A program made the translations under genes and the position numbers. Shown here one piece after another: positions 5,139-50,492 of a stretch of 64,000 nucleotides of DNA (position 1 is the first letter of the stretch; every line of letters starts with the position of its first letter). The stretch spans positions 14,422 to 78,421 of the forward strand of contig JALNYN010000001.1 in assembly GCA_023229825.1 (NCBI GenBank), in the 5' to 3' direction. The notes beneath the pieces are model-generated. The model was not told where the DNA came from, did no database searches, and saw only the letters and a list, made by a program, of their open reading frames with translations. Source of the stretch: Minisyncoccota bacterium. Lineage in GTDB: Bacteria > Patescibacteriota > Minisyncoccia > Phycocordibacterales > CAIJYI01.

Positions 5139-5155
5139 TGTATAATGCTTGAATG
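5139..5155 (+). promoter_or_regulatory. extended -10 (TGTATAAT) 6 nt upstream of the ATG: candidate leaderless promoter for the RAYT gene
   Basis: tgtataatgcttgaATG; no SD possible. Confidence 0.45.
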
Positions 5156-5950: not shown

Positions 5951-8900
5951 ATGAAAAAAATAATATTTCTCGCCACGGTGCTCTTTTTCGCACCTTCGTT
6001 CGTTTTTGCTGGAACTCCGGTCTGGGGTACTTTAAATTCCGATACCGTCTGGACGGCGGAAAGCGGTCCGTACCTTGTAGACTTCGCGATAGTCCCGGAA
6101 GGAGTAACACTTACAGTGGAAGAAGGAACCGTAGTTAAATTCACCGGACAGCGTTCAATGCTTGAAGTTTCCGGAAACCTTGTCGTTTCAGGGACTGAAT
6201 TGAGCCCCGTTGTTTTTACCTCCATAAATGACGATTCTGTCGGCGGCGATACCGGCACGGGAGCGAATGAGTGGGGAAACATTCTGATAAAGAACGGAGG
6301 AGTTGCGGAGATCGATCACACGATCGTTCGCTATGGCGGATGGACTGGATGGCTTTCTTCCGCCGCTCCGTCCAACATTTGGAACGACGGGGGAAACCTC
6401 ACCCTAACAAACTCGAAGATCAGCAATGCATGGACAGGCATAACGCATTCAGCGGGAAATACCGCGCTCACGGAAAACATATTCACGGAAAACCATATGG
6501 GAATTTCCGCGGGCGGAACGGGAAACGTCCGTTTCGATCATAATAATTTTTTTAATAATACCGGCAATGTGGCTTGGTTCGACCTCACTAACGGCGTCTC
6601 CCTTGCCCATTCGGATAATACCGCATGGGGAGGAACTCCGGGATTGGTTCTCGCAGGCGAGGCCGGCGCAGATTATGTTTTTGAGAAAGACGGAGCGCCA
6701 TACGTCATCGATCACTTCACGGTTCCCGCGGGAAAGACAGTAACATCGCGGCAGGGAACGGCATTTAAAATATTGAATCCCGTCAGCGAGATAAATATTT
6801 CCGGAACGTGGAACGCCGAAGGGACTTCGGATGAACCCGTTTACTTTACTTCCATTAAAGATGATACCGTTCTGGGAGATACCAACGGCGACGCCGATGC
6901 CACCAGCCCGGCTAAGAAAGATTGGGAAGGTATCATCATTTTACAAGATGGCAAAGCAAACTTCGATCATTCCGTTTTCCGCTATGGAGGATACAACGGC
7001 TGGCTGCAAAGCACTTATTCATCCAACATATCAAACAACGGAGGAGTTCTTATTATCTCCAATTCAGAAATTTCGCACGCCCCTATCGGGGTTAATCATG
7101 TTTTAGGGAATACCTCAATTTACGATAGCAATTTATCTGAAAATATTCAGGGAATAAATGCAATGGGAAAAGGAGTTATCGAAATCAAAAGGAATATTTT
7201 TGCAAACACAAGCTATGCGTGTTCTCTTAAATTATCAGAACTTTTGTTAACGAACGCCGGCAACAAAGTTCTTGGAAATGGATTCCGCGGTTTTAATATT
7301 GAAGGTACATTATCAACCAACCAAACATTAGCTAAAGATGTTCCATATATTGTTTCTACCATTACCATTCCTGCCGGAAAAATGCTCACGGTGCTTCCCG
7401 GAGCGGTAATTAAAATGAAGACTGCTTATGGCAGAATTACAGTTGATGGCGAGATTCAGGTCCTTGGAACAAAAGATGATCCGATATATTTTACATCAAT
7501 AAAGGACGACGAAGTCTACGGCGATACGAACGGCGACGGGAATGTTTCTTTTCCGCAACCCGGCAACTGGTCTGCGGTCGTCGTGCATCCGGGAGGAGCC
7601 GCAAACTTCGACCATGCGATCATCAAATACGGCGGATATTATTATTACGGTGATTCAATTCTCTACAATGACGGTGGAACCCTTTCCGTAAAGAACTCGC
7701 AAATCTCTTTCTCTCCCAGTTACGGAATTTATCACCGAAGCGGCTCGACCACCGTGAATTACAGCACGATACGAAACAACGGTTTCGGAGTATTCAATGC
7801 GGGATCCGAAAGTATCGACGCGACAAACAATTTCTGGGGCACCGCCGCCGGACCAAATCACAACGGTTTGCCGATCGAAGCGATTTTGAACGACAAGGTT
7901 TCGGATCAAGTAAATTATGCTCCGTGGCTTGATTATGATCCAATGGTAACGCTTCCGACATCAATAACGCTTACCAACGGCGGCGAAACGGAAAACGACG
8001 ATTTGCAAGATGGAAAAGGAGTGGCGGATAAAACTCAGTTTACGTTTTCTGTTGTTGCATCGGAAAATCTAGTGGACATAAAACTTGTAACCGATTCATC
8101 GGACGTCGGCATCAATCCGGGTCAATTCTTTTTGTACGCTTCAGGAACCGAAGGCGTTTACTCTCGCGCTCTTACCTTTCCGAAGGGACACTATCGCTAT
8201 CATTTTGAAGCGGGAGACGGAAACGGCGGCGTATATCGTTACCCGGAAGCAACCGAACTTGAATTTACAACCGGCTATTCAAACGTGGCGTTTTTGCCGG
8301 GGATCGAGGCATCGCGGCTGTACATAAATGGATATAAACAATGGGAGCCGCTCGGCGACAATGATGCCGAAGATCTTTTGATGAATAGCAACGGAAAAAG
8401 CGTAAAAGACAATATTTACACCAAAGATGTGATAAATAATGCTTACCTGCCGATAAAAGGGAATGTGTACCAGTCGTTTATTGAATCGATGAACGAATTA
8501 AAAAGCAGTCATATTATTACCGATTGGAAACCTCTCGCCTATGACTGGCGGTTGTCTTTTGGTGATGTTTTGAATAACGGGCAAATAATGAATGACGGAA
8601 TAAACTATACGCGAGAAATTTCTCCGCTTGATACGCCGAATATCATCGGCGAGATACATCGCCTTGCCGAAAGTTCCGACACGGGAAAAGTTACGATTGT
8701 TACGCATTCCATGGGAGGTCTCCTCGCAAAAAAACTCGCCATAAAACTCGGGGCGGATGCGCCGAAACTGTTGGATCAAATGATATTCGTCGCCTCTCCG
8801 CAGGCGGGGACGCCTCAAGCGATCGGCGCGCTTCTTCACGGTGCGGATGTCGCACTTCCACTGACCTCTTTGGATTACGGCATTTCTCCGAAAGAAGGAA

Positions 8901-10489
8901 GAAAACTCTCGCAAAATATGCCGTCGGCGTATTCTTTGCTTCCTTCCGCAAAATATTTCAGGTATGTTGATAATTCGGTGATCACTTTTGACGATTCCGA
9001 TTTTCTCGAACCGTGGCGGACCAAATACGGACAGAAAATTCATTCGCAGGAACTTCTTCGTAATTTTTTGATTGACCAGGCGCGCCCGCCGCTTACCGTT
9101 TTTTACCCGCTAAATTTCCCCGCATCAACAAATCCGACGCTTCTTGCAAACGCCGAAACTTTGCATGATACGGAAATCGATAATTGGGAACCGCCGACCG
9201 GCGTGCAATTAACTGAAATTGCCGGGTGGGGAGTGGAAACGCTTGCGACGATCGAATACAAAAAAGGAATTTATGCTCCCTGCATTGAATGGAAAGAGGC
9301 GACTTGCGTGAAAAAAGATGAAATTCCCGTTCTTGAACCGCATCTGAAAACGGTAGTTGATGGCGATGGAACGGTCGTCGTGCCGAGCGCGCTGTGGACG
9401 GCGACAAGTACGGGGGTGAGGAAATATTGGGTGGATTTGGCGACTTATAATTCTTGGAAAAATCTATTTCAAACAGGAACTCTTATCGCGCGCAAACATG
9501 CTGATATTTTTGAGGTTCCAGAAATCAGAGATTTTACAAAAAACCTGATTCTTCGTAATGGGATTATTCCTGAAAAATATATTTTTACATCAACTCCTCC
9601 AAACACCTTTGATTCCGACATGCGTCTCCATTTCACACTTCACTCGCCGCTTGCGCTTAATCTTTACGATGACCAAGGCAACCACACCGGATATTCCACC
9701 ACCACGCGCGAGTTGGAAGAAAATATCCCCGGCAGTCAGTACATCGCTTTCGGCGAATTGAAATATATCAGCGTTCCGGCATCTTCAAATCTTCACCTCG
9801 CCATGAACGGATACGCAAGCGGGTCGTTCACTCTGGATGTGGAGGAATGGCAAGGAGATGCTATTATGGCATCAACAACCTTTGCCGCTATTCCTTCGGC
9901 GACAAGCACCGTCGCGACAATGAGTGTTTTGGCAAACGAAGGAGTTGCCGGGGTTTCGCCTCTGTACGTTGACGAAAACGGCGATGGTACAATTGACATG
10001 ACGCTTGCTCCAAAGATCGACGGAACGGTTTTTCCTGATTTCACTCCGCCCGAAGCAAAAATTTCCGTTGATCCGGCGACAAAGGACTTGCTCATTGAAG
10101 GCGTTGATGAAAACCCGACGACCATTTCAGAAAACGGAAATACCTACACAATTACCGATTCGTCGGGAAACACGACAACTCTCTTCTTTCAAAAAACCTT
10201 CACCGCAAAGCGTCTCACTTTTGCAAAATTGACAGGTGTTCAATACGGAACAGATCCGAAAATATCACTCCCATCGTCTTCGTTTCTGTATCTTTGGAAT
10301 CCGGCACTTGACAGCCAAACCGTCGCCGTCAAAAAAGATTTCATTATTGAAGCGGTGTACAACAAACAGAAAAATCAAACGACTGTGTTTTTAAAAAAGA
10401 AAGGAGAAAAAACACAGAAACAAACCTTTGTAGGATTGAAAGTGGTAAAATTGACTGTGGACAAAGGAATGGTTGGGTATGAGATTTAG
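5951..10489 (+). CDS. giant secreted protein: signal peptide, three tandem ~230-aa beta-helix-like repeats, and an LCAT/PGAP1-like alpha/beta-hydrolase lipase domain
   Basis: 1512 aa; repeats (V/I)xFTSI(N/K)DDxVxGDTNG...FDH..RYGG; nucleophile elbow VTHSMGG and PLAYDWRLSF (the YDWR motif of LCAT family PF02450); paralog at 42703-46113. Confidence 0.85.
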   Translation: MKKIIFLATVLFFAPSFVFAGTPVWGTLNSDTVWTAESGPYLVDFAIVPEGVTLTVEEGTVVKFTGQRSMLEVSGNLVVSGTELSPVVFTSINDDSVGGDTGTGANEWGNILIKNGGVAEIDHTIVRYGGWTGWLSSAAPSNIWNDGGNLTLTNSKISNAWTGITHSAGNTALTENIFTENHMGISAGGTGNVRFDHNNFFNNTGNVAWFDLTNGVSLAHSDNTAWGGTPGLVLAGEAGADYVFEKDGAPYVIDHFTVPAGKTVTSRQGTAFKILNPVSEINISGTWNAEGTSDEPVYFTSIKDDTVLGDTNGDADATSPAKKDWEGIIILQDGKANFDHSVFRYGGYNGWLQSTYSSNISNNGGVLIISNSEISHAPIGVNHVLGNTSIYDSNLSENIQGINAMGKGVIEIKRNIFANTSYACSLKLSELLLTNAGNKVLGNGFRGFNIEGTLSTNQTLAKDVPYIVSTITIPAGKMLTVLPGAVIKMKTAYGRITVDGEIQVLGTKDDPIYFTSIKDDEVYGDTNGDGNVSFPQPGNWSAVVVHPGGAANFDHAIIKYGGYYYYGDSILYNDGGTLSVKNSQISFSPSYGIYHRSGSTTVNYSTIRNNGFGVFNAGSESIDATNNFWGTAAGPNHNGLPIEAILNDKVSDQVNYAPWLDYDPMVTLPTSITLTNGGETENDDLQDGKGVADKTQFTFSVVASENLVDIKLVTDSSDVGINPGQFFLYASGTEGVYSRALTFPKGHYRYHFEAGDGNGGVYRYPEATELEFTTGYSNVAFLPGIEASRLYINGYKQWEPLGDNDAEDLLMNSNGKSVKDNIYTKDVINNAYLPIKGNVYQSFIESMNELKSSHIITDWKPLAYDWRLSFGDVLNNGQIMNDGINYTREISPLDTPNIIGEIHRLAESSDTGKVTIVTHSMGGLLAKKLAIKLGADAPKLLDQMIFVASPQAGTPQAIGALLHGADVALPLTSLDYGISPKEGRKLSQNMPSAYSLLPSAKYFRYVDNSVITFDDSDFLEPWRTKYGQKIHSQELLRNFLIDQARPPLTVFYPLNFPASTNPTLLANAETLHDTEIDNWEPPTGVQLTEIAGWGVETLATIEYKKGIYAPCIEWKEATCVKKDEIPVLEPHLKTVVDGDGTVVVPSALWTATSTGVRKYWVDLATYNSWKNLFQTGTLIARKHADIFEVPEIRDFTKNLILRNGIIPEKYIFTSTPPNTFDSDMRLHFTLHSPLALNLYDDQGNHTGYSTTTRELEENIPGSQYIAFGELKYISVPASSNLHLAMNGYASGSFTLDVEEWQGDAIMASTTFAAIPSATSTVATMSVLANEGVAGVSPLYVDENGDGTIDMTLAPKIDGTVFPDFTPPEAKISVDPATKDLLIEGVDENPTTISENGNTYTITDSSGNTTTLFFQKTFTAKRLTFAKLTGVQYGTDPKISLPSSSFLYLWNPALDSQTVAVKKDFIIEAVYNKQKNQTTVFLKKKGEKTQKQTFVGLKVVKLTVDKGMVGYEI

Positions 10490-10530: not shown

Positions 10531-10938
10531 ATGACAAAAAAAAACATTGTGTTGTTTAGTGCATTAGTAGGAACGATTACGTTTTTCTTACTTATCTTTT
10601 CGAGTGAAATCGGATTGTGCCCAAGAAATATCGGTACTTGTTCGCAAAGTTATGATGCAACTGCAACAAACTTTTTCTTGTTTTTACCAATACTTTTCTT
10701 CTCCCTCATCACCTACAAACTTCGCGAAGAAACATTTCGTGCATGGCTTCATTTTGCGTATTGGTGGGTTCCGTTATCAATGTTTCTTACTCTGATAACT
10801 CCTGAGAGCCGCGGCGGCGGATTCGGACCACAAATATCATGGGGAAAAGAAGACACCGCTTTTGTGTTTTCGGGTTTGTTCGCCATCATCTCCCTCATCC
10901 TTATCATTTACAAATCCATAAAGTTAAGAGGGAAGTGA
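10531..10938 (+). CDS. small multi-TM membrane protein, C-terminus ...ISLILIIYKSIKLRGK (paralog family 1 of 3)
   Basis: Shares FAYWW(V/L)P and an identical C-terminal 14 aa with 11083-11472 and 46141-46572. Confidence 0.7.
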   Translation: MTKKNIVLFSALVGTITFFLLIFSSEIGLCPRNIGTCSQSYDATATNFFLFLPILFFSLITYKLREETFRAWLHFAYWWVPLSMFLTLITPESRGGGFGPQISWGKEDTAFVFSGLFAIISLILIIYKSIKLRGK

Positions 10939-11082: not shown

Positions 11083-11472
11083 ATGAAGAATAAAACTCTA
11101 ATTGTGATATTGTTTATATCGTTAATTTTATTGGCAGGTACATTTTTAGTTTGTCCCACCCCAACCGATGTTTGTTTGAGATATGACGAACTTTCCGTTT
11201 TTCTGATTCTTTTTTCTGCCCCGGTATTCCTCCTGTCATTAATTCTCCTTTTTCTCCGAGAAGAAATTTTTCGTTCTTGGAAACATTTCGCTTATTGGTG
11301 GCTCCCGATTTCCGCTTTCTTCATTATGTTAGCACCATCAACTGATCGCGGAAGCTTTGATTTTGGTATGGGATTCGATAGGGAGGCGGTAACTTGGTTT
11401 TTTGCGGTCTTATTTTTCCTTATCTCCCTCATCCTCATCATCTACAAATCGATAAAACTGCGCGGAAAATAA
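11083..11472 (+). CDS. small multi-TM membrane protein, paralog 2 (same C-terminal IYKSIKLRGK tail)
   Basis: Tandem paralog of 10531-10938. Confidence 0.7.
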   Translation: MKNKTLIVILFISLILLAGTFLVCPTPTDVCLRYDELSVFLILFSAPVFLLSLILLFLREEIFRSWKHFAYWWLPISAFFIMLAPSTDRGSFDFGMGFDREAVTWFFAVLFFLISLILIIYKSIKLRGK

Positions 11473-12914: not shown

Positions 12915-13505
12915 ATGGAAAACGACATCTTCAAAAAATATAAAACGTTCGTCATGGTGGGAAAACCGGGAAGCGGTAAGGGGATGCAAACCCGTCTTCT
13001 TGCCGAGAAAAGCGGCTTTAAAACTTTCTCCACCGGCGATAAATTTCGAGAACTGCAGAAAGCTGATACTCCGCTCGGACACAAGACCGCCGAGATCATG
13101 GATCGCGGAAGCCTGATGCCTTATTGGTTCGCCGGTTTTCTTTTTCAAGAGGCGGTGCTCTATCTGCCTGAAAACGAGGGTATTATCTACGAAGGAGCAG
13201 CAAGAAAAGCTCCCGAAGCTGAACTTTTTCACGACGTAATGACATGGCTTGAGCGTCCCTATAAAGCTATTTATCTAGATGTACACGATGATGAAGTGAC
13301 GAAGCGCCTTATAAAACGAGGCGGAATAGAAAACCGTGCCGATGACAATGAAGAAGCAATAAAACACCGGTTGAAAGTATATCAGGAGGAGGTTGTTCCA
13401 GCTGTTCAGGTTTTTCAAAAATATGGCACTATCCTTGATGTCAACGGCGATCAGACCCCCGAAGAAGTCCATCAGGAAATATTAAAGATGATCGCAGGAA
13501 GCTAG
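12915..13505 (+). CDS. adk: adenylate kinase
   Basis: P-loop GKPGSGKGMQ, LID region, conserved order adk-map. Confidence 0.9.
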   Translation: MENDIFKKYKTFVMVGKPGSGKGMQTRLLAEKSGFKTFSTGDKFRELQKADTPLGHKTAEIMDRGSLMPYWFAGFLFQEAVLYLPENEGIIYEGAARKAPEAELFHDVMTWLERPYKAIYLDVHDDEVTKRLIKRGGIENRADDNEEAIKHRLKVYQEEVVPAVQVFQKYGTILDVNGDQTPEEVHQEILKMIAGS

Positions 13506-13617: not shown

Positions 13618-14388
13618 ATGTCCATAATAATAAAATCCCCCAAAGAAATAGAAATACTTCGCGAAGGCGGCAAGCGGCTGGCTCATGTGTTGGACGTGGT
13701 TGAAAAGGCGGTTCGACCCGGCGTGAGCACGAAAGATCTCGATAAAATTGCGTATGATACCGTTATCGAAATGGGCGATACTCCGGCGTTTCTGAATTAT
13801 CAACCTTATGGCGCGGATTTTCCGTATCCGGGAACGATCTGTCTTTCCGTGAACGATGAAATAGTGCACGGTCTTCCAAAACACGAACGAATTTTGCAGG
13901 AAGGGGATATCATCGGCCTCGACATGGGGATCATCCACGGCGGACTTATTACCGACAGCGCTCGCACGGTCGCGGTGGGGAAGATCAGTGAAAAAGCGCA
14001 GAAGCTCATGGATACGACGAAAAAAGCTCTTGAAGTGGGAATTTCAGCCATAAAGATCGGCGGACACGTGGGTGATGTCGGATATGCCATTGAACGATTC
14101 GTGAAGCCCTACAAATATGGCATTGTACGAGAGCTCGGAGGCCACGGCGTAGGCCGACAAGTCCACGAAGACCCATATATCCCCAATTTCGGCACAAAAA
14201 AGGGCGTAGGCGCGAAATGGAAGCCGGGAATGGTGGTCGCCATCGAGCCGATGTTGAACGAAGGGAAGCGCGGGATCGTTCTCGACCGAGATGGTTACAC
14301 ATATCGAACCGCCGACCGTTCACTCTCTGCTCACTTTGAACACACAATCGCCATCACAAAAGATGGGGTGGAAATACTTACGAAATAA
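13618..14388 (+). CDS. map: methionine aminopeptidase type I
   Basis: Conserved pita-bread fold motifs (DxxGxxxDxARTVAVG, HGxGxxxHE). Confidence 0.92.
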   Translation: MSIIIKSPKEIEILREGGKRLAHVLDVVEKAVRPGVSTKDLDKIAYDTVIEMGDTPAFLNYQPYGADFPYPGTICLSVNDEIVHGLPKHERILQEGDIIGLDMGIIHGGLITDSARTVAVGKISEKAQKLMDTTKKALEVGISAIKIGGHVGDVGYAIERFVKPYKYGIVRELGGHGVGRQVHEDPYIPNFGTKKGVGAKWKPGMVVAIEPMLNEGKRGIVLDRDGYTYRTADRSLSAHFEHTIAITKDGVEILTK

Positions 14389-14400
14389 CATTGAGCTATC

Positions 14401-14449
14401 GTCCCCTAGGGCGGTCCTCGGTATTTTGCCGAGGACCGCCCTAGGGGAC
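14401..14449. repeat. REP1 palindrome copy 3, followed by a T-run: doubles as the map terminator
   Basis: GTCCCCTAGGGCGGTCCTCGG-TATTTTG-CCGAGGACCGCCCTAGGGGAC then tttttg. Confidence 0.8.
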
Positions 14450-14486
14450 TTTTTGTTTGCACAATTCGTCGAAATTCGCAAAAGGT

Positions 14487-14504
14487 TGTATAATAGAGCT
14501 CATG
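14487..14504 (+). promoter_or_regulatory. -10 TATAAT 9 nt before the ATG at 14502: candidate leaderless start
   Basis: ttgtataatagagctcATG. Confidence 0.4.
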
Positions 14505-17261
14505 GAAGACCATTTTAAAATTTTGCCTCAGTTTAAGAATCCTGCTGAGGAGCTTACTTTTTTGCGTACTGCCGTTCGTGAACAGCAGGAAAAATTGGCG
14601 GAGCTTGGGGTGGAAACGACGCAGGAAAAACTGATCGGCGAAAATCTTGCGCAGTATAAAGCCATTCTGCCTTCGGAGGCTTTGGCTGAAGGGCATCGCA
14701 TGGAAGAAGGGGAAGTCGACGCGATCGTGCTTGATCTTGCTCCTGAAGCGCATGACTCCCAGATGGAAGAATTACTGGGTATTTTGCAGGAGCGGGGAAT
14801 AATGAATGCGCTTTCCGTCGTCGCAGGGCTTCACAATCCGCATATCGAAGACGATTTTCATCGCGTCCTCGTGCAATACATCAAGAGCGTTGAAGATAGC
14901 AGTTTGAAACAGCGTGGAACAGAGCGCCTTTTTGAAGAACTTCATATGACGCTGTACGAAGTTTCTCTGCCGTTGCCTGAAAAAGAAGACAAGAACAAAG
15001 CGCTCAAAGAACTTATCTCCGGAATGCAGCAATTCTATGCAGGCATGATCTCTGTCGATCTCGAGACCAGAAAACATGCGGACCGAAATTACTACTCTTT
15101 GGAGGTTGCGCTTCCGCACGACAGCGATGAGGTTTCTTTTCATGTGGCGGTTCCCGATACAAAAAAAGATCTTTTTGAAAAACAAGTCCTCGCCATATTT
15201 CCCGACGCGCACGTCATTGAAAACAAAAATGATTACAATATTTTCAATAACGATGGAATTTCCGTGGCAGCCTACGCCGTTCCCTCGGGAAATATCGTTT
15301 TTCCGCTCAAAACTTATGACGAATTCGATTATGATCCGCTCAATGTGGTCTTGAATGTCTTTTCAAAATTGCAGCGCCTTGGAGAGGGTGCTGCCATTCA
15401 GCTGCTCGTTTCTCCTGTCGGTGATGAATATAACGTGCAGTATAAATATGCGCTGAAAAAAATTAAAGAGGGCGTGAAAGTGAAAGATGCTACCGATTTT
15501 CCTAAAAATATTTTGGGAGAGGTGTGGCGCACCGGAAAAGATTTTTGGAAGATACAGATCACGGCTGAAGAAGAAAAAAAACGGCATGATAAAGAAAAAG
15601 AGCGTCTCGACGAGAATGTGGTAAAAATGATCGAAGAAAAGATGGCTCTGCCCATTCTCGATACGAATATCCGCGTAGTTGCATCGGCTTCGAGCCGCGA
15701 ACGCGCCACGCAGATCTTGCACGAGATCGAATCGGCTTTCCATCAATTTACCGACCCAAAAGGCAACGGAATGAAATGGAAAGAAATGAGCGGTGAGAAT
15801 CTTTCCCACATGCTTCACGATTTCAGCTACCGCTTGTTTGAGAACGATGCGAGTTTTCCTCTTAACCTTATGGAGCTGACGACCGTGATGCATTTTCCGG
15901 CAGGAAATGTCGCCATGCCACAGCTGAAAGAAGCAAGGGCGGGAATAGCGCCTGCACCGATAAATATCGGAGAAGAAGGCGTATTGCTTGGAATAAATGA
16001 TTACCGCGGTTCGGAGAAAGAGATCCATTTCGCCAAAGAAGATCGCGTCCGGCATTTCTATGTGATCGGACAGACCGGTACCGGTAAAACCGTTCTTTTG
16101 AAGAACATGATCGTTCAGGATATCCAGAACGGCTCCGGCGTCTGTATGATCGACCCTCACGGGACGGACATTGAAGATATTCTTGCGAATATTCCGCGCG
16201 AACGCATTGATGACGTGATCTATTTCGATCCGAGTTATATGGCGCGCCCGATGGGGCTCAACATGCTGGAATTCGATGAACGATTTCCGGAACAGAAGAC
16301 GTTTGTGGTCAACGAAATGCTCGCGATCTTCAACAAACTGTTCGACATGAAAGTCGCCGGAGGTCCCGCTTTCGAACAGTATTTCCGCAACTCCGCGCTG
16401 CTCGTTCTTGAGCATCCGGAATCCGGTTCTACACTTATGGAGATCGGCCGCGTGCTCGGCGACAAGGCGTTCCGCGAGTTAAAACTTTCTCATTGTAAAA
16501 ATCCGATCATTACGCAATTCTGGCATAATGCCGAAAGGACGACCGGAGAACAATCGCTGGCGAACTACGTGCCCTACATCACGAATAAATTCGACGTGTT
16601 CATTTCGAACGACATCATGCGGCCGATCATTGCGCAGGAAAAGTCTGCCTTCAATTTCCGCAAAGTGATGGATGAAAAGAAAATACTTCTCGTCAATCTT
16701 GCCAAGGGAAGGCTCGGCGATATCAATTCCAGTCTTCTCGGTCTTGTCATCGTCGGAAAAATTTTGATGGCTGCTCTTTCGCGCGTGGATGTCATGGGAA
16801 CCGGAAAAATGCCTCCCGATTTTTATTTGTACATCGACGAGTTCCAGAATGTGACGACCGATTCCATTTCCACGATCCTTTCCGAGGCGAGAAAGTATCG
16901 GCTTTCGCTCAACATTGCGCATCAATTCATTGCCCAGCTTCAGGATGAAATAAAGGATTCGGTATTCGGCAACGTCGGTTCCATGGCGGTCTTTCGCGTC
17001 GGTACCGAAGATGCGGAATTCCTGCAGAAACAATTTGATCCCGTCTTCACTCAAAGCGACATCATCAAGCTCGAGAACTACAACGCTTATATGAAAATGC
17101 TGATCGGCGGCCAGCCCGGCAAGCCTTTTAATATTAAGACGGTCGCTCCGAACAAGGGAAATAGAGAAATGGTCCCGCTCATCAAGGAATTGTCGTATTT
17201 GAAATTCGGAAGGGATAGGGCGCAGATCGAGGCGGAAATCTTGGCTAAGTATAAGCGATAG
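14502..17261 (+). CDS. VirD4/TraD/TraG-like (type IV coupling protein-like) or FtsK/HerA-superfamily P-loop ATPase with an ~480-aa unique N-terminal region
   Basis: Walker A VIGQTGTGKTV, Walker B LYIDEFQNV, AAA_10/TrwB-like C-terminal half; alternative start 14457. Confidence 0.65.
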   Translation: MEDHFKILPQFKNPAEELTFLRTAVREQQEKLAELGVETTQEKLIGENLAQYKAILPSEALAEGHRMEEGEVDAIVLDLAPEAHDSQMEELLGILQERGIMNALSVVAGLHNPHIEDDFHRVLVQYIKSVEDSSLKQRGTERLFEELHMTLYEVSLPLPEKEDKNKALKELISGMQQFYAGMISVDLETRKHADRNYYSLEVALPHDSDEVSFHVAVPDTKKDLFEKQVLAIFPDAHVIENKNDYNIFNNDGISVAAYAVPSGNIVFPLKTYDEFDYDPLNVVLNVFSKLQRLGEGAAIQLLVSPVGDEYNVQYKYALKKIKEGVKVKDATDFPKNILGEVWRTGKDFWKIQITAEEEKKRHDKEKERLDENVVKMIEEKMALPILDTNIRVVASASSRERATQILHEIESAFHQFTDPKGNGMKWKEMSGENLSHMLHDFSYRLFENDASFPLNLMELTTVMHFPAGNVAMPQLKEARAGIAPAPINIGEEGVLLGINDYRGSEKEIHFAKEDRVRHFYVIGQTGTGKTVLLKNMIVQDIQNGSGVCMIDPHGTDIEDILANIPRERIDDVIYFDPSYMARPMGLNMLEFDERFPEQKTFVVNEMLAIFNKLFDMKVAGGPAFEQYFRNSALLVLEHPESGSTLMEIGRVLGDKAFRELKLSHCKNPIITQFWHNAERTTGEQSLANYVPYITNKFDVFISNDIMRPIIAQEKSAFNFRKVMDEKKILLVNLAKGRLGDINSSLLGLVIVGKILMAALSRVDVMGTGKMPPDFYLYIDEFQNVTTDSISTILSEARKYRLSLNIAHQFIAQLQDEIKDSVFGNVGSMAVFRVGTEDAEFLQKQFDPVFTQSDIIKLENYNAYMKMLIGGQPGKPFNIKTVAPNKGNREMVPLIKELSYLKFGRDRAQIEAEILAKYKR

Positions 17262-17747: not shown

Positions 17748-18356
17748 ATGGAAACAACACATCCGAAAAAAGAGCGTACATTTGTACTTTTGAAACCAGA
17801 CGCGATCCAGCGCGGGCTTATTGGGGAAGTGGTTCATCGCATTGAGCGCACGGGGTTGAAACTCATTGCTCTCAAAATAATCATTGCGACGCGTGAGCAG
17901 GCGATGGGGCATTATTTCAAAGACGATGCATGGTGCGAAGATAAGGGGTCAAAAACGGTCGCTGCGCTCAAAGCGGCGGGAAAAAGGCCGAAAAAAACCG
18001 CTATCGAATTCGGGCGCGATATCGTCCGAGCTCTTGCCGATTTTATTACGAGCGGACCGGTCGTCGTGATGATCTGGCAGGGCAATGAAGCGATCGGCGT
18101 GGTTAGAAAACTCGCCGGAGGAACGGAGCCGACGACCTCCGATGTCGGAACGATCCGAGGAGATCTTACGATCGATTCTTATCGAATGGCAAATGTCGAT
18201 TCGCGCGCGGTCAGAAATCTTATTCACTGCTCAGACAAACCGGAAGAAGCGGAAAGAGAAATAAAAATTTGGTTTAGTAAAGATGAGCAATTGAAATACC
18301 GGCTGTTGAACGAAGAAATTTTGTACGACATCAATTTGGACGGAATACTGGAATAA
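17748..18356 (+). CDS. ndk: nucleoside diphosphate kinase (with internal insertion)
   Basis: N-terminal ERTFVLLKPDAIQRGL...; catalytic-His region. Confidence 0.85.
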   Translation: METTHPKKERTFVLLKPDAIQRGLIGEVVHRIERTGLKLIALKIIIATREQAMGHYFKDDAWCEDKGSKTVAALKAAGKRPKKTAIEFGRDIVRALADFITSGPVVVMIWQGNEAIGVVRKLAGGTEPTTSDVGTIRGDLTIDSYRMANVDSRAVRNLIHCSDKPEEAEREIKIWFSKDEQLKYRLLNEEILYDINLDGILE

Positions 18357-18546: not shown

Positions 18547-21500
18547 ATGTACAAAAAGTTTTTGGAAAGCCCCATTCACCACAAGATTATTTTTGCAACC
18601 ATCGCTTTGGTGGTACTTTTGCTCCTCACTTTTGCGGGAATTTTTTATGCAAAAAAAGCGTTTACCTACCCCGCGCCTTCTTTCCCGAATTATTTTCGCA
18701 TGCCGACCGACCCGTCGCACATGAGAGGAGAAACAGACGGAACCGGAACACATTTTGCGATTACCGACAGCGAATATCTGAACATTACGCTTGATAGTAC
18801 AGAAACCGTTGATATGCGCCTCACTTCAATTCCGAAAGTGATCACGATGATGTTTGAGGCAACCACCACCGCAACCCGTTCGGCAAGCTCAGGGCAAGCA
18901 ACCGCTCAAATCACGCTCTCCGGCTTGGCATCAAACACAACCTACTACAAATACGAAGACGATTATCACCATCTCGCACAATTCACTTCCGACAACAACG
19001 GAGCGTATACGTATACGCAAGATATTTCCGTTCAACATTTCGTCTTCATTCAAACCGTAAAAAGCACAAAATTCATCGTGGACAACATCACAGGGGGCGA
19101 CTGTTCAACGATTGGAACTTGGAACGCGGGAACCAAAACATGTACGCTCACCCAAGACCTCACTGAAACCGTGCAAATAGACAGCGATGGCGTTACTTTT
19201 GACGGCAACGGACATAAAATAACGATAACGCCGGATTATACCGCCAATGGAGTATATATTTCCGGAAAAGCAAGTACGACAGTAAAGAATCTTACCGTCA
19301 ACGGCGCCTATGAGGGTATTTTTCTTTTTCTAAACAGCGGTGTCCGTGTTTCAAAAAATACTTTTACCGGTAATATGGACGGTATCTATCTCCGGTTCGG
19401 CGGCGATAACGCGATCAAAAGCAATGTCGTTAGCGATAATTATCGTAACGGAATTACCGTTTACGATTCAACCAACAACCAAATTCTTGAAAATACGGCG
19501 ATGGGAAATAATTATTCCGATTTCAATATCCAAGAAGATTATATCGGTTCCGCCATATGCGACAATATCATAACCGGCAACATCGGATTCGGCGGTCGTC
19601 CCATCGGTTTCTTCAATTCTCCAACGACATTAAACGGCGGTACATTTTCAGAGCTTATCCTCTGCGATGCCGACAGCTCTGACATAAGAAATGTGACGAT
19701 TAAAAGCTCTGACAATGGCTTTGGTGGCGGTGGTTTGCTCGCGTTTTATACTGACCATGCAAATTTCAACAATAGTACATCCAACGACAATATTCACGGC
19801 GTGCATTTACACAAATCTCATTCAAACATTTTTGAGAACGTTACCGTAATGCATGACGGTTACAATGTTTTGCTTGATAATTCCAACTCAAATATTCTAA
19901 AAAATATTTCTGCGGGCAGTGACGGATTCATTCAATTCACATTGGCGAATGATAACGAATTGGACGGAGCCACAATTGATGAATCAGCCGGCATTGGCTT
20001 TTATTACCAGAGTAATTCCAATCGCCTTCATAATTTCACCTTTCCCGACCAATGCCAAATATATACCGACAATAGAGGGAGTACCGGCAATTTGATTTAC
20101 AACAACAATTTTATCGGTGGGCAGTGTCAAATAACGGGAATGACCGGAAACTCTTTCAACCTCCCGAAACCGATTGGCGGGAATTACTGGAGCGATTATG
20201 ATACACCCGCGGAAGGATGCAGTGATGTGGACAGCGACGGCTTTTGTGATGCGCCGTATGTTTTTGTCGGCGCGCAAGACAATCTTCCGTGGACGAGACA
20301 GGATGGGTGGAAAGTCACGGTTGATATCGGACAAGCCGCCTCTGATTTGGCGAAACTTGTGGTTGACGGGCAATATCTTGGAGACGGCAATACGTGGGGC
20401 GGCAAAGGATGGGATCCCAATCAAGCTAAATATGTCACGCCGAGTGAGATTTTTGCCGGATATCATTTTTGGAATAATGCTATTTCGGTAAGAGCAATTG
20501 ATTTTGGAGCGGGAGTTGATTGTTCCGGACTGGTGCAGTGGTCATTCAACCGGTCGTTCGACCCCAATAAGAGTTTGTTGAAAAATGTGATTCGTTATGA
20601 CAACGCCGACGGTCAATTCAGGAATAACTCAGTTCCTCTCACTGAATTAGAACTTCGTCCGGGCGATTTGCTGTTTCTTGATAAAAACCTCAACGGCGTT
20701 AGGGATCATGTCGGGATGTTTGTGGGCGGTAACGCGGCGTCAGATGTGGTAGAATCGCATTCCCCGATACGTGGCATCATATCCTCTAGTAAAATTGAAT
20801 TTAAAACAAGAGATGGGTTTATAGAAAATCAAAGCATTAGACGAGTAGTTATTAGTCCCACGATAGCCGGACAGATTAATGCTGGTTCTCCGATTGATCT
20901 TACTGTGACCGATCCGGAAGGATTCACACTTACTCCCGAAACAGCAATTCAAACAGACGATGAGCTCCTCCGCGAAGTGCCGGGAGAACTTTACTATACG
21001 GAAAATGTTCTCGGATCAGACGGGCATCCGGAGGATATTATTTATTGGCCGGTTCAAAAAAACGGGGATTATCTCATTACGGTTACGGCCGAGCCCGATG
21101 CGGCGCCAACCGAAACCTTTGATTTGACTTTTATTTCCGGGACTGGCTCTACCACGATAGTAGCATCAAATATTCCAATCTCAGAAATACCTGCTCAATC
21201 TTACATAATCAGGTCTTCGGACGGCAATTTTGAAAAAGTTATTCCGGCAAAAATAAAAATCAAACCTGAAACGATGAATCTTGCGAGTGGCGGAATCATT
21301 ACCGTTGCACTCCAGTTTGACCCCGGTTTCGGTGTCGTGGTACATGATATCGCCACTTCCACCCTCCGGCTCGCAGGTGCACGGCCGATACGAACCGCTA
21401 TTGAAGTGGAGGAAAAGATACCGCCGCCTAAGAACGAAAAGACAAGCAAAAAACAAAAAGACCATGGAGAATATGAGGATGATGAAGAAATGGAAGTTTT

Positions 21501-21729
21501 GACTTTGGTCGCGAAGTTCCGCACGAAAGATTTGACCGGCGTTTCCGTCGGCAAGAAAGTTCCACTCGTGCTGACAGCCCGGCTCTCTGGTGGTATGAAG
21601 GCTGAAGGAACCGATACGGTTGAAATAATAAGCAAAGGCGCATTTTCAGTCTTATCTGATGCGTTTACGCAGCTTGCCGGCGTTTTGACGGCCACCCGGA
21701 AATTATTCGCTCAATTGCCAGGATTATAA
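18547..21729 (+). CDS. membrane-anchored cell-wall hydrolase: parallel beta-helix repeats fused to an NlpC/P60 domain plus C-terminal beta-rich domains
   Basis: N-terminal TM; beta-helix repeats (NxxGIxL, SxNxVxxN); NlpC/P60 Cys-His: GVDCSGLV ... DHVGMFVGG. Confidence 0.8.
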   Translation: MYKKFLESPIHHKIIFATIALVVLLLLTFAGIFYAKKAFTYPAPSFPNYFRMPTDPSHMRGETDGTGTHFAITDSEYLNITLDSTETVDMRLTSIPKVITMMFEATTTATRSASSGQATAQITLSGLASNTTYYKYEDDYHHLAQFTSDNNGAYTYTQDISVQHFVFIQTVKSTKFIVDNITGGDCSTIGTWNAGTKTCTLTQDLTETVQIDSDGVTFDGNGHKITITPDYTANGVYISGKASTTVKNLTVNGAYEGIFLFLNSGVRVSKNTFTGNMDGIYLRFGGDNAIKSNVVSDNYRNGITVYDSTNNQILENTAMGNNYSDFNIQEDYIGSAICDNIITGNIGFGGRPIGFFNSPTTLNGGTFSELILCDADSSDIRNVTIKSSDNGFGGGGLLAFYTDHANFNNSTSNDNIHGVHLHKSHSNIFENVTVMHDGYNVLLDNSNSNILKNISAGSDGFIQFTLANDNELDGATIDESAGIGFYYQSNSNRLHNFTFPDQCQIYTDNRGSTGNLIYNNNFIGGQCQITGMTGNSFNLPKPIGGNYWSDYDTPAEGCSDVDSDGFCDAPYVFVGAQDNLPWTRQDGWKVTVDIGQAASDLAKLVVDGQYLGDGNTWGGKGWDPNQAKYVTPSEIFAGYHFWNNAISVRAIDFGAGVDCSGLVQWSFNRSFDPNKSLLKNVIRYDNADGQFRNNSVPLTELELRPGDLLFLDKNLNGVRDHVGMFVGGNAASDVVESHSPIRGIISSSKIEFKTRDGFIENQSIRRVVISPTIAGQINAGSPIDLTVTDPEGFTLTPETAIQTDDELLREVPGELYYTENVLGSDGHPEDIIYWPVQKNGDYLITVTAEPDAAPTETFDLTFISGTGSTTIVASNIPISEIPAQSYIIRSSDGNFEKVIPAKIKIKPETMNLASGGIITVALQFDPGFGVVVHDIATSTLRLAGARPIRTAIEVEEKIPPPKNEKTSKKQKDHGEYEDDEEMEVLTLVAKFRTKDLTGVSVGKKVPLVLTARLSGGMKAEGTDTVEIISKGAFSVLSDAFTQLAGVLTATRKLFAQLPGL

Positions 21730-21732
21730 AAT

Positions 21733-22338
21733 ATGTTCACCAAAAGAAAAACTTTTTTTCTGCTATTCGCTCTTTTTGCGGCCACATTTATCGTCCTTGC
21801 TTATTGGTTTTTCATCATTAAAAAACCTGTTCAATTGCAACAAAAAAAGGGAGATGAGCCAAGACTTGAACAAGGTATCCCACTGCCGTCAAACGAACCG
21901 GCTACCGTACCGCTACCGCCCGTCTACGCAACAACATCGTCGGAAATAAAACTTTATCGCAACGAAAAATGGGGATTTGTGTTTGAGTATCCAAACGATT
22001 GGATTGTGAAAGAAAATACCTTCGGAAGCCATTACAGTAAATTTAACCTCGTGGTAAATCCTGGATTGGTACGGAGCTCTAATTTCACGATTTCATTAAA
22101 TATCGTTTTGCCGGAATTTCCGGATCGCAGTTTCGAGAATATAGAAAAAATTACCACTAGTGTAGTTGTTGCCGGTGTCCCCGGGATTAAGTATCAATAC
22201 GAGTTTGAGGGTAGCCAAGAAACAGCCATTATTGTACCTCTTAGAGATTATAAGTTAATTTTAGGCATGGATAATAAACAGTATGAAGATGAATTTGCTT
22301 CATTTCTCGCTTCGTTCAAGTTCACCGGTATCCAGTGA
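21733..22338 (+). CDS. hypothetical membrane-anchored protein (paralog pair)
   Basis: Shares YRNE(K/E)WGF.FEYP.DW.VKEN.F.S.YSKF with 22585-23040; starts 4 nt after the upstream stop. Confidence 0.6.
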   Translation: MFTKRKTFFLLFALFAATFIVLAYWFFIIKKPVQLQQKKGDEPRLEQGIPLPSNEPATVPLPPVYATTSSEIKLYRNEKWGFVFEYPNDWIVKENTFGSHYSKFNLVVNPGLVRSSNFTISLNIVLPEFPDRSFENIEKITTSVVVAGVPGIKYQYEFEGSQETAIIVPLRDYKLILGMDNKQYEDEFASFLASFKFTGIQ

Positions 22339-22584: not shown

Positions 22585-23040
22585 GTGCAAATTTCTAACG
22601 AGAATTTATCAGTAAATATTATTAAAGCAAGTTCTAGTCCAAAAAGCACTGAAAAGCATACAAAAACCTATCGCAACGAAGAGTGGGGTTTTGAGTTTGA
22701 GTATCCGGACGATTGGGAAGTGAAGGAGAATATTTTTGAAAGTTATTACAGTAAATTTTATGTCGTGATTAATCCGCTTTATACTCGCAGTTCGACCCAT
22801 ACAATTATAGTAAACGTTGTAAAACCTGAATTTCCAGAAAAAACTTTCAAAGGATTCAAAGGAAAGGAAATCTTAATCAATAAAATTAAGGGGGTTAGGT
22901 ATGAATATGGTTCAGAAAATTCGCGAGAAATAGCAATTGTTTTGCCGTTGGGACTTAATAAAATTATATTGGGAACTATTGATTTAAAATATGAACAGGA
23001 GTATGAGAAATTTCTTACCACCTTTAAATTTATAAAATAA
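22585..23040 (+). CDS. hypothetical protein, paralog of 21733-22338
   Basis: Sequence similarity read directly. Confidence 0.55.
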   Translation: MQISNENLSVNIIKASSSPKSTEKHTKTYRNEEWGFEFEYPDDWEVKENIFESYYSKFYVVINPLYTRSSTHTIIVNVVKPEFPEKTFKGFKGKEILINKIKGVRYEYGSENSREIAIVLPLGLNKIILGTIDLKYEQEYEKFLTTFKFIK

Positions 23041-23903: not shown

Positions 23904-25265
23904 ATGAAAGCGAAACTTACATTTGCCGGAGGAACGGGCGGTCCGACGGGGGCCAATTTTTTGTTTGAAACATCGGATAAAAAAATACTCATCGACTGCG
24001 GTCTGACACAAGGAGACGAATCAGCGGAAGATCTGAATCGCGAAATGTTCCCATTCGATCCCGGGGCGATCGATATTCTTTTTGTCACCCATGCCCATAT
24101 TGATCATATCGGAAGAATTCCATTTCTTATAAAGAACGGATTTCGCGGAAAGATCTATTCCACTCCGCCGACTCGGGATCTCGCAGAGCCGATGCTTGAT
24201 GATACGCTGTCGCTCATGATCCACGAGGAGAGGAAAAAAGGAACGGAGCCGCTCTATGATGCGGTAGATATACGGCAAGCGCTTTCGCTTTGGACGGGAA
24301 TAGAATACCGAAAGGAAATTCCGGTTTCTGACGATCTCTCGGTCGTTTTCCATGATGCCGGTCATGTGCTCGGATCGGCAATGATCGAAGTTCGATATGG
24401 AAAAAAGAAAATGCTTTTTACCGGAGATCTGGGTAATTCTCCCTCATCGATACTTCGCGATACCGAATATGTCCCCGATATTGATTATGTGCTGATGGAG
24501 AGCGTGTATGGGGATCGCGAGCATGAACACAGAGATGAAAGGAGGGATCTGCTTGAAGATGTTGTAAAAGAATCGGTAAAAAAGAAAGGGGTTTTACTGA
24601 TCCCCGTTTTTTCTCTCGAAAGAACGCAGGATATTTTATTTGAGATCAATGAACTGGTGGAAAGCGGAAAAATTCCCGCCGTGCCGGTGTTTCTTGATTC
24701 TCCGCTCGGTATCAAGATAACGGAAATTTATAAGAAGAACAAAAAATATTTCAACGCAAGCGCGCAGGCGATCATTCAGGGAGGAGATGACATTTTTCAA
24801 TTTCCGAAACTTCATTTCACTGCGGATGTCGAGGATTCCAAAGCTATTCGCGGCGTTCATCCTCCAAAGATCATTTTGGCGGGTTCCGGCATGTCGAACG
24901 GAGGACGAATATTGCATCATGAAAAAGAGTATTTATCCGACCCGAAAACTACGCTGCTCTTCGTGGGTTATCAGGCGGTCGGGACCCCCGGAAGACTTTT
25001 GGAGAATGGAGAAAAGACCGTCCGTATCATGGGCGAAGAAATAAAAGTGCGCGCACACACCGCAACGATCCACGGCTACTCGGCTCATCGAGATATGAAT
25101 GGCTTGTTCGATTTTGTCGATCAAATGAGCGATACAGTGCAAAAAGTTTTCGTAGTGATGGGCGAACCGAAAGCGGCGACGTTTTTATCGCAAAGGATAC
25201 ATGATTATCTCGGTTTGGACGCGGTGGTGCCGAGATTGGGGGAAAGTATTGAGCTGGAATTTTAA
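23904..25265 (+). CDS. MBL-fold metallo-hydrolase with beta-CASP domain (RNase J / CPSF73-like RNA-processing nuclease)
   Basis: HAHIDHIG metal-binding motif, beta-CASP region, COG1236-like length. Confidence 0.8.
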   Translation: MKAKLTFAGGTGGPTGANFLFETSDKKILIDCGLTQGDESAEDLNREMFPFDPGAIDILFVTHAHIDHIGRIPFLIKNGFRGKIYSTPPTRDLAEPMLDDTLSLMIHEERKKGTEPLYDAVDIRQALSLWTGIEYRKEIPVSDDLSVVFHDAGHVLGSAMIEVRYGKKKMLFTGDLGNSPSSILRDTEYVPDIDYVLMESVYGDREHEHRDERRDLLEDVVKESVKKKGVLLIPVFSLERTQDILFEINELVESGKIPAVPVFLDSPLGIKITEIYKKNKKYFNASAQAIIQGGDDIFQFPKLHFTADVEDSKAIRGVHPPKIILAGSGMSNGGRILHHEKEYLSDPKTTLLFVGYQAVGTPGRLLENGEKTVRIMGEEIKVRAHTATIHGYSAHRDMNGLFDFVDQMSDTVQKVFVVMGEPKAATFLSQRIHDYLGLDAVVPRLGESIELEF

Positions 25266-25796: not shown

Positions 25797-26408
25797 ATGA
25801 AACACTCATACAACAAAATTAAGCTCTGCGTTGCCGGTGCGGCGGCGACAGGACACTGCGGGCAGGGTGCCATGGAAATGGCGGAGAAACTCGGCCGCGA
25901 GATCGCCAAGCACGGCGCGGCTATCGTTACCGGAGCGACCACCGGATTCCCTCTGTGGGCTGCTATGGGGGCAAAGGAGGCCGGAGGGCTTTCGATCGGT
26001 CTTTCTCCCGCATCAAGCGAAAAGGAACACGTTGAGGCGTATCGCTTGCCGCTCGACTATATGGATGTCGTGGTATATACGGGATTCGGATATTCCGGAC
26101 GAAACCTTTTGCTTACGCGATCATCCGATGCGGTTTTTGTCGGTTGCGGAAGGATCGGTACCATCAATGAATTTACTGTCGCTTATGAGGACGGGAAACC
26201 CGTCGGAGTGCTTGAAGGCGGCTGGATGACGGACGAAGTGATAAAATTCATCATGAACGAAAGCCATCGCACGAATAAAAATATCGTATTCGATTCGGAC
26301 CCGAAACGCTTGGTGGAAAAAGTTATCGACATGGTACAGAAAAACAAATCCCATAATTTGGTATATAATAATGGGGTGCACCCGTCTCCGTATAAGGAAA
26401 TACTTTAA
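25797..26408 (+). CDS. LOG/TIGR00725-like Rossmann-fold nucleotide-binding protein
   Basis: GAAIVTGATTG ... GCGRIGTINEF motifs. Confidence 0.65.
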   Translation: MKHSYNKIKLCVAGAAATGHCGQGAMEMAEKLGREIAKHGAAIVTGATTGFPLWAAMGAKEAGGLSIGLSPASSEKEHVEAYRLPLDYMDVVVYTGFGYSGRNLLLTRSSDAVFVGCGRIGTINEFTVAYEDGKPVGVLEGGWMTDEVIKFIMNESHRTNKNIVFDSDPKRLVEKVIDMVQKNKSHNLVYNNGVHPSPYKEIL

Positions 26409-29534: not shown

Positions 29535-30094
29535 GGTATTATTATATAAGACTTTAATTGGTAAGTCTACATTGTAACAAATATTGTGTTTTTTGGCAAT
29601 AACGAAAGCGGAATCTCCGGAAGTACAAAAAAAGAGTCCCGGAGGGGACTCTTTATAAATCAATCATTCTTCATGGGAATGATAAATGATCGGTTCGGTG
29701 TCTGTTTTTTCTTGAACATAGCGGCTGACATCGAGAGTATAACAGTCTTCAAGGATCTCGATCGCTTGCGTTCCAAGACTGGTTTTTACGATGACCTTCT
29801 TTTTCACTTCGTCATAGGCGATCTTTTGAACGCAAAATACCATATTGCAACCGGGGATGGTTATTTCCGTAACAACACTTCTCCTCGGCGTATGTACAGC
29901 ATCGGGAGGGGATCGTCAAATATGTTGTCGTTCATTTCTATTCTCCTCATCTTAAATATAAAGAACAAAAGTTGAATTATTTATACATCCGGAGTGGCAA
30001 AATGTCAATATGTGGATAAACTGGCGAGAGAGGATAAAAAAATCGCCCCACGGGTGGGGCGATCGAATCTTCTTTTTCTGAAAAATTTTCTTTT

Positions 30095-50490: not shown

Positions 50491-50492
50491 AC

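Follow-up and report, generated by a model that had tools for sequence, protein, structure and literature searches.

Which kind of motor is encoded between map and ndk in a Patescibacterial chromosome, and what does it act on? The question is raised by a gene located at positions 14502-17261 (+) of a stretch of 64,000 nucleotides from a Minisyncoccota bacterium (GenBank assembly GCA_023229825.1, contig JALNYN010000001.1, positions 14,422 to 78,421), the whole of which is called here the window. Patescibacteria represent a large share of bacterial diversity and their cultivated members live attached to host cells. An earlier note, made from the sequence alone, had described the product as a VirD4/TraD-like coupling-protein-type ATPase with a unique N-terminal half, possibly used for uptake from, or delivery to, a host cell rather than for plasmid conjugation.

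In the structure models, the protein displays the domain organisation of VirB4, i.e. a VirB4-type N-domain followed by a P-loop motor, with a lineage-specific helical extension in front. The gene, which is chromosomal and conserved in Paceibacteria (Parcubacteria), has retained its neighbourhood and belongs neither to a mobile element nor to a defence island or a type IV secretion system (T4SS) cluster. The role tentatively favoured for its product is that of a motor docked on a T4SS-type platform.

An intact gene carrying the motifs of a P-loop ATPase

The gene and the parts of its product, domain limits being those of the models and of the relatives, are the following.

14502..17261 (+): complete open reading frame of the ATPase gene (DUF8128/VirB4-like), 919 aa and a stop codon, supported by the list of open reading frames, an identical database protein and the homologues
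14502..14906 (+): all-helical N-terminal extension, residues 1-135, predicted from the models and from relatives starting at about residue 140
14919..15941 (+): alpha/beta domain, residues ~140-480 (Pfam DUF8128), with a predicted VirB4/TrwK N-terminal-domain fold
15969..17258 (+): P-loop motor domain, residues ~490-919, of the VirB4/VirD4 (T4SS ATPase) group
16068..16091 (+): Walker A motif GQTGTGKT, residues 523-530, read from the sequence
16293..16607 (+): all-alpha insertion between Walker A and Walker B, residues ~598-702, from the helices modelled at 598-702
16824..16841 (+): Walker B motif YLYIDE (hhhhDE), residues 775-780, read from the sequence (YIDEFQ corresponds to residues 777-782)

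The intact open reading frame and the two Walker motifs reported in the earlier note are thus recovered, and the motifs are kept in the homologues. The ATG at 14502 matches the start of a 100% identical public entry of 919 aa, named 'DUF87 domain-containing protein [Candidatus Paceibacterota bacterium]', as well as the N-termini of the homologues (M-E-x7-PKF), which give no support to an alternative start at the TTG at 14457. In Walker A, residues G523, T525, G526, G528 and K529 are invariant across distant homologues, and the Walker motifs remain invariant or nearly so even in relatives displaying 36-57% identity. Walker B is followed by the stretches SEARKYR and AHQ (806-808); D779, E780, R797, K798, H807 and Q808 are nearly invariant in distant homologues. 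SEARKYR and AHQ are candidates for the sensor or arginine finger, roles in which R797 and Q808 may be involved.

A Kyte-Doolittle scan (19-residue window) of the 919-aa protein detected no transmembrane segment. Its sole hydrophobic peak (1.93), at residues 741-759, lies within the ATPase core, and the N-terminal half, with a net charge of -28, is devoid of any such peak.

A VirB4-type fold predicted for the N-terminal half

The N-terminal ~480 residues, previously considered unique and motif-free, belong to a large family. Indeed, PF26449 (DUF8128) is assigned to the identical protein (P0001) and to all 120 homologues listed in a precomputed annotation, on which the assignment rests because the local copy of Pfam did not report this family. 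With the first 480 residues alone, a search retrieves the representatives of 1040 clusters formed at 50% identity (E<=1e-3), 152 of them at E<=1e-30. Two forms of the protein are found, one of ~920 aa that includes residues 1-135 and one of ~800-823 aa that begins near residue 140 of the query; the short form comes from Parcubacteria or Minisyncoccia wherever the organism is named.

This half was also said to be charged and helical, which is too simple a picture: it is all-helical in residues 1-135 only. Two models were obtained, an AlphaFold2 model of the whole protein built from 34 homologues (mean pLDDT, the predicted local distance difference test, 70.9) and a second one of residues 1-485 (mean pLDDT 68, core 80-90). 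Both of them place helices at residues 14-128 followed by a disordered linker, and a mixed alpha/beta domain spans residues ~149-465. Residues 1-135 are specific to the long form, being absent from the ~800-823-aa relatives and from the profile of a phage family described below, and their mean identity among distant relatives is 24%.

Structure prediction gave the N-terminal half the fold of the VirB4 N-terminal domain, at odds with its supposed uniqueness. All the Foldseek matches obtained with this half at E<=1e-3 (14/14) are TrwK/VirB4 chains from structures of the R388 T4SS, with a probability of 1.00; the PDB structures matched include 7o42, 8rtb and 8rtd. This result agrees independently with another structure comparison, the figures of which were:

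TrwK/VirB4: 16.6
DotL: 14.8
Cagbeta (VirD4): 14.3
VirB4 C-domain: 13.1
DptH C-domain: 12.5
TrwB: 11.4
HerA: 10.5
FtsK: 6.5

The N-terminal half is assignable because structure comparison worked where sequence searches had failed: neither Pfam on residues 140-480 at E<=1 (no VirB4 family) nor a profile search of PDB sequences with the N-terminal half returned anything meaningful. Together, the absence of an N-terminal membrane anchor and the fold predicted for the N-domain point to a VirB4 domain organisation. As for the motor domain, it looks slightly more VirD4/TraD-like by sequence and equally VirB4- and VirD4-like by structure. Judging from position rather than from a residue-wise alignment, its insertion (residues 598-702) would occupy the place that the all-alpha domain has in TrwB-type coupling proteins and the helical bundle in VirB4.

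Relationships with known ATPase families

Matches with sequence models are short and confined to the catalytic motifs. In Pfam, DUF87 is found at residues 517-554, TrwB_AAD_bind at 508-557 and TraG-D_C at 774-841, the last two passing marginally (21.5 for a cut-off of 20.5 and 24.7 for a cut-off of 22, over ~50-70 residues each), while FtsK_SpoIIIE remains below its cut-off (15.8 vs 24 bits) and the VirB4 families (CagE_TrbE_VirB, P-loop_TraG) give no match at E<=0.01 for the whole ATPase. In NCBIfam, TraD/VirD4 models match best, with 5-15% of the score required by their cut-offs; the scores in bits and the cut-offs are 52.1 and 366 for SXT_TraD (3.8e-14), 39.6 and 647 for TOL TraD, 38.7 and 250 for CD1115, and 15.5 and 521 for F-type TraD. 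The matches with TrwB_AAD_bind, DUF87 and the TraD models cover ~40-70 residues at the P-loop, and those with TraG-D_C and CD1115 cover ~70-80 residues at Walker B. The VirB4_CagE model TIGR00929 reaches 23.7 bits for a cut-off of 643.1, and no stretch passes alone. Searches of PDB sequences match just TrwB and DotL, around the P-loop, and PADLOC reports mad8 at 3.7e-13 across the motor domain. The only full-length match is the PHROG family phrog_5156 (E 1e-81, 276 bits), residues 135-915 being aligned with positions 14-806 of the 824 of the profile.

The VirD4/TraD-like label of the earlier note therefore fits the motor domain, which falls in the TrwB/VirD4/VirB4 group, but not the architecture, which includes a VirB4-type N-terminal half and no membrane anchor.

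The soluble N-domain and C-terminal P-loop motor of VirB4/TrwK/TraC-type ATPases (R388 TrwK, PDB 7o42, 8rtb, 8rtd) are both found in the protein. It differs from VirB4 by an N-domain without detectable sequence similarity, by its additional 135-residue helical extension and by a gene that is not located alongside those of VirB3, VirB6, VirB8 or pilins; furthermore, according to a recent survey, Patescibacteria own a separate bona fide VirB4 next to TrsD (PMC12102498). The protein also carries the nucleotide-binding domain of TrwB type (Walker A, Walker B and all-alpha insertion). However, unlike VirD4, TraD, TrwB and DotL, it has no N-terminal anchor, the place of which is taken by a cytoplasmic VirB4-type half of ~480 residues; it scores far under the curated cut-offs; and its gene lies without relaxase or conjugative context among the open reading frames scanned in the window, at a conserved chromosomal position. 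The ring translocases HerA, FtsK and EccC are lower-ranking structural matches whose N-terminal domains, partners and contexts differ. The ATPase does not show the combination of HAS-barrel N-domain, HerA-type motor and NurA or other nuclease/effector partner that marks HerA, nor that of N-terminal membrane domain, PF01580 motor and gamma domain that marks FtsK/SpoIIIE. Its gene is not found in an operon with a methyltransferase or a nuclease, as are those of defence ATPases (MADS Mad8, DndH/DptH).

A conserved chromosomal gene of Paceibacteria

More than 1329 full-length homologues (~920 aa) were found, all of them in metagenome-assembled genomes of Paceibacteria or Parcubacteria where the source is named. 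The best 80 genome loci all belong to Patescibacteria (80/80), and at least 393 further stretches encode relatives. Records that name a lineage are mostly of Paceibacteria type (Nomura-, Taylor-, Zambryski-, Yonath-, Campbell-, Kaiser- and Adlerbacteria). Some third-party assemblies are labelled 'uncultured Candidatus Saccharibacteria', a label that may be generic because several of these loci show the same neighbourhood. The mean identity of the motor domain is 79% with close homologues and 56% with distant ones (53% and 31% for the N-domain), which suggests that the motor is under purifying selection.

A mobile or viral origin was considered and rejected. Among the 2.9 million viral contigs of IMG/VR, just 3 weak matches were obtained, with the C-domain only, and there is no compositional anomaly, the G+C content of the gene (0.46-0.47) being equal to that of its flanks. 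No second copy of the gene was detected in the window by tblastn.

The neighbouring genes conserved in relatives are located in the window as follows.

12915-13505: adk (Pfam)
13618-14388: map (Pfam)
17748-18356: ndk (Pfam)
23904-25265: RNase J
25797-26408: SLOG
29022-29663: infC

The location between map and ndk, outside of any conjugative cluster, had already been noticed and proves to be conserved: among the 48 loci with at least 3 kb on each side, 33 carry map upstream or ndk downstream and 23 carry both. In most loci, the genes are co-directional and follow the order ribosomal proteins, secY, (cmk), adk, (pyrH), map, ATPase, ndk, (DUF2238), RNase J, SLOG, rplT/infC; in more divergent lineages, the gene is found in other housekeeping contexts. 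The window keeps adk-map-ATPase-ndk, RNase J, SLOG and infC, with genes of surface proteins inserted, and this block is separated from the S10/spc ribosomal cluster, the start of which (tuf, rpsJ) is found at 60-62 kb. Such retention of a cellular gene and of its neighbourhood over much of the class fits vertical inheritance.

The search for T4SS or type IV pilus partners, proposed in the earlier note, was negative in the window: Pfam scans of its ~40 larger open reading frames revealed no T4SS, type IV pilus, competence, relaxase, Rep-like or NurA gene. Neither nickase, relaxase or partition gene nor NurA-type partner is evident among the recurrent neighbours of the Patescibacterial loci.

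Several loci show particular arrangements. In the window, a gene encoding a 1060-aa NosD/right-handed beta-helix and NlpC/P60 protein (18547-21729, +) lies between ndk and the RNase J block and breaks the synteny seen in relatives. In six loci (L050, L058, L061, L066, L072 and L074), the homologue is directly followed, on the same strand, by the gene of a fast-evolving protein of 630-950 aa. These proteins have no Pfam match, share 25-30% identity with one another and lack a homologue in the window; within a few genes after them, an FKBP isomerase and tgt are usually found. They could be lineage-specific partners in divergent Paceibacteria and were not used for functional inference. In locus L088 (6933-16573), a short relative of 804 aa (P0242) belongs to a co-directional cluster. 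The gene of a POTRA_1 (FtsQ-like) protein lies two genes upstream of it; the other products are a multi-pass membrane protein of 597 aa, several small membrane proteins and a secreted, proline-rich protein of 529 aa. Among these neighbours, only the POTRA_1 protein has a Pfam assignment, and none has a homologue in the window or in the other loci; this single example may correspond to a dedicated envelope apparatus.

Expression signals

Two signals precede the gene.

14402..14448 (+): hairpin resembling an intrinsic terminator, 20-bp stem with 15 G-C pairs followed by a T-run, between map and the ATPase gene
14489..14494 (+): TATAAT box, read from the sequence, which ends 7 nt before the ATG, without Shine-Dalgarno sequence

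A -10-like box of this kind, with its first nucleotide 11-17 nt before the ATG, is found in 57 of 79 homologous loci and upstream of 160 of 821 other genes, the start sites of which were called crudely (Fisher p = 2e-21). Across the homologous loci L001-L086, the box ends 6-9 nt ahead of the ATG, and a Shine-Dalgarno-like motif precedes the gene in 3 of 79 loci. Judging from these signals, the ATPase gene is probably transcribed alone, as a leaderless or near-leaderless mRNA. The same arrangement in ~19% of the other genes suggests that leaderless mRNAs may be common in Paceibacteria.

Distant relatives in phages

Proteins of 750-910 aa displaying 22-25% identity with the ATPase were found by tblastn in phages of Bacillus, Geobacillus and Lysinibacillus, including SPO1 gp27.4 and CP-51 gp91. 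The phrog_5156 profile covers the whole ATPase except for its N-terminal extension, and the members of this family have a similar size and the same order of N-domain and motor; they are encoded in early or replication regions. With a pairwise identity of ~22-25%, the ATPase is a distant relative of phrog_5156 and not a phage gene.

In SPO1-like phages, the gene is preceded by that of an actin-like partition protein and directly followed by that of a protein of the Replic_Relax family (PF13814), annotated as 'replication initiation by nicking', neither of which lies near the Patescibacterial genes. In TP-84 and SPP1, the relative is surrounded by early or replication genes. Although the evolutionary distance is large, the phage context suggests that the wider family acts on DNA. 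In SPO1L1 (L087) and CP-51 (L090), the genes form a plasmid-like module consisting of the actin-like partition protein, small open reading frames, the DUF8128-type ATPase gp27.4 and the Replic_Relax nickase gp27.3; in most records of SPO1-like phages, this ATPase is annotated merely as hypothetical.

Orphan coupling-protein homologues of Patescibacteria

The survey of Quinonero-Coronel et al. 2025 (PMC12102498) reports VirB4 in 2417 of 3035 Patescibacteria genomes, its gene being mostly located beside those of TrsD (VirB4 N-terminal-like), VirB3, VirB6, VirB8 and pilins. It also reports 5713 homologues of VirD4-type type IV coupling proteins (T4CPs) in 2918 of the 3035 genomes (96%), of which only 148 of 5713 are encoded near virB4; according to its authors, an exaptation of these homologues for different roles cannot be excluded. 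Wang et al. 2023 described in Southlakia epibionticum an essential T4SS without recognisable coupling or relaxase proteins (PMC10633639).

The DUF8128 family is probably among these T4CP homologues encoded far from virB4, an identification that we infer from shared features and not from accessions. In both cases, VirD4-like matches are near-ubiquitous and almost never near virB4, and the names of DUF8128 proteins in databases derive from Pfam domains of T4CPs. In Table S3 of the survey, as far as available, nearly every genome has a 't4cp1' match away from virB4, with coverage values that are multiples of 1/110; this implies a profile of ~110 positions, which would match the TraG-D_C-like stretch of the ATPase (PMC12102498). 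The t4cp1 match at gene 596 of GCA_000991405.1 gives positional plausibility for one genome only.

The family is thus already catalogued in Pfam (DUF8128), under NCBI names and probably among the orphan T4CPs of the 2025 survey, and the gene of the window is an ordinary member of it. The new elements are the relation of the N-terminal half to the VirB4 N-domain, the absent membrane anchor, the conserved position and a predicted promoter of its own. In the passages of PMC12102498 consulted, neither the domain architecture nor the VirB4-like N-domain, the absent anchor or the position between map and ndk was found to be mentioned, and a literature search found no mention of DUF8128. These elements matter since a T4SS-like apparatus is essential in the one species tested and has no recognisable coupling protein (PMC10633639), and since T4CP homologues without assigned role are encoded elsewhere in 96% of the genomes (PMC12102498). 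A VirB4-like N-domain and no anchor direct the search towards a docking partner or a DNA-motor activity rather than a relaxase, and the Pfam family DUF8128 gains a structural assignment. The gain lies in a sharper hypothesis and a better annotation, not in the demonstration of a new mechanism.

Possible functions

The reading given most weight, at somewhat less than an even chance, is that of an ATP-driven motor which would dock via its VirB4-like N-domain on a membrane platform of T4SS type. The ATPase may assemble into a ring, like its relatives of solved structure; it would dock through its N-domain, because it lacks a membrane anchor of its own, on the platform of the type IV secretion-like apparatus of Patescibacteria, whose genes lie elsewhere in the genome; and the hydrolysis of ATP could then drive assembly or the passage of a substrate, DNA or protein, at the cell envelope. 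Here we infer the oligomeric state, the docking partner, the substrate and the direction of transport. The use put forward in the earlier note, uptake from a host cell or delivery to it, is compatible with the data and with the speculation found in PMC12102498.

Several observations weigh against such docking. No T4SS, relaxase or pilus neighbour was found in any of 83 distinct homologous loci, and no membrane partner, pilus or T4SS gene among the larger open reading frames of the window. The likeness to the VirB4 N-domain is confined to structure, no sequence profile connecting the two, and the confidence of the models is moderate (mean pLDDT 68-71; N-domain core 80-90). T4CP-like genes occur in more genomes than VirB4 (2918 vs 2417), and in S. 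epibionticum the t4cp homologue is reported to be dispensable although the T4SS is essential (both in PMC12102498, whose t4cp1 matches would include the DUF8128 family).

The main competitor, rather unlikely yet to be taken seriously, is a cytoplasmic DNA motor independent of any T4SS: a ring ATPase translocating or remodelling DNA, recruited as a housekeeping gene of Paceibacteria, for example for chromosome or replicon processing, segregation or the handling of imported DNA. The conserved housekeeping neighbourhood and the predicted own promoter argue for it, as do the very high conservation of the motor domain, unusual among plasmid coupling proteins, and the excess of T4CP-like over VirB4-bearing genomes. 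So do the phage relatives, SPO1 gp27.4 and CP-51 gp91 being flanked in their genomes by an actin-like partition protein on one side and a Replic_Relax nickase on the other, and those of TP-84 and SPP1 in early or replication regions. However, the N-domain is of a type known from membrane-docked T4SS ATPases (7o42, 8rtb, 8rtd), no nickase, relaxase or partition gene stands beside the Patescibacterial genes in the homologous loci, and relatives only ~22-25% identical may differ in function. Moreover, a missing chromosome translocase is not evident, as Saccharibacteria at least keep FtsK; a replacement of FtsK by the ATPase is accordingly not supported. The data do not separate the docked motor, tentatively preferred, from this autonomous and rather doubtful one. 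A broader and fairly improbable proposal is that the orphan 'coupling proteins' constitute a third branch of T4SS-type ATPases, with a VirB4-like N-domain and VirD4-like sequence features in the motor, domesticated as a stand-alone, constitutive housekeeping DNA motor. This branch might stand as an intermediate between VirB4 and VirD4 in evolution, with the gp27.4/nickase modules of Bacillus phages as relatives, and might for example handle imported or chromosomal DNA in cells where nucleotides cannot be made.

The remaining explanations have little to recommend them. A canonical VirD4/TraD coupling protein of a conjugative or mobilisable element, with an unusual N-terminal addition, would account for the TraD/VirD4 models (SXT_TraD, TOL TraD, CD1115) as best NCBIfam matches, for the marginal passes of TrwB_AAD_bind and TraG-D_C and for homologues named 'type IV secretion system DNA-binding domain-containing protein' or 'TraM recognition domain-containing protein' at NCBI. 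It is nevertheless extremely improbable: a canonical membrane-anchored protein is contradicted by the absent anchor and the conserved chromosomal synteny, the N-terminal half has the predicted VirB4 N-domain fold, the matches are short and far under the cut-offs (e.g. 52 vs 366 bits), no relaxase, VirB4 or mating-pair gene lies nearby at a position syntenic across the class, and the G+C content does not deviate from that of the flanks. Very improbable too is a housekeeping ATPase of the HerA or FtsK family with orthologues in free-living bacteria, an assignment that would have undone the reading of the earlier note. The DUF87 match is confined to the P-loop (residues 517-554), FtsK_SpoIIIE stays under its cut-off, the Pfam scan gave no HAS-barrel or FtsK gamma domain, no NurA-type partner recurs among the neighbours, and the best 80 loci are all Patescibacterial. 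The ATPase is thus not HerA or FtsK, and that assignment therefore does not hold. Despite the mad8 match, there is scarcely any likelihood that the protein serves an anti-phage defence system in the manner of Mad8 of MADS or of DndH/DptH: its gene holds a conserved position among housekeeping genes and not in a variable island, its immediate neighbours include no methyltransferase, nuclease or other defence gene (the methyltransferase/HATPase island of the window is 32 kb off), and class-wide sequence conservation is atypical for defence genes.

Other features of the window

In that island of low G+C content (49294-53746, +; 0.35-0.37 vs ~0.45), a C-5 cytosine DNA methyltransferase gene is transcribed together with those of a 759-aa protein carrying two GHKL-type HATPase domains and of a 325-aa protein that has no Pfam match. 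The island probably represents a restriction or defence module gained by horizontal transfer. It is followed by a transfer-messenger RNA (tmRNA) gene (54063-54449, -). Two copies of genes of IS200-like Y1 transposase type are present, at 5153-5848 (+, 231 aa) and 61945-62655 (+, 236 aa), the second one directly after tuf-rpsJ, at the usual place of the continuation of the S10 operon.

Two proteins carry an LCAT/PGAP1-like alpha/beta-hydrolase (lipase/acyltransferase) domain, one of 1512 aa (5951-10489, +) with a signal-peptide-like N-terminus and repeated stretches, the other of 1136 aa (42703-46113, +) with weak WD40-type matches as well; on the basis of their domains, both could be involved in scavenging lipids from a host membrane. 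Finally, two pairs of tandem paralogues were observed, small membrane proteins (10531-10938 and 11083-11472, +) that share an identical ISLILIIYKSIKLRGK tail, and small proteins (21733-22338 and 22585-23040, +) that share a YRNEKWGFEFEYP-type motif and have a weak PsbP_2 match.

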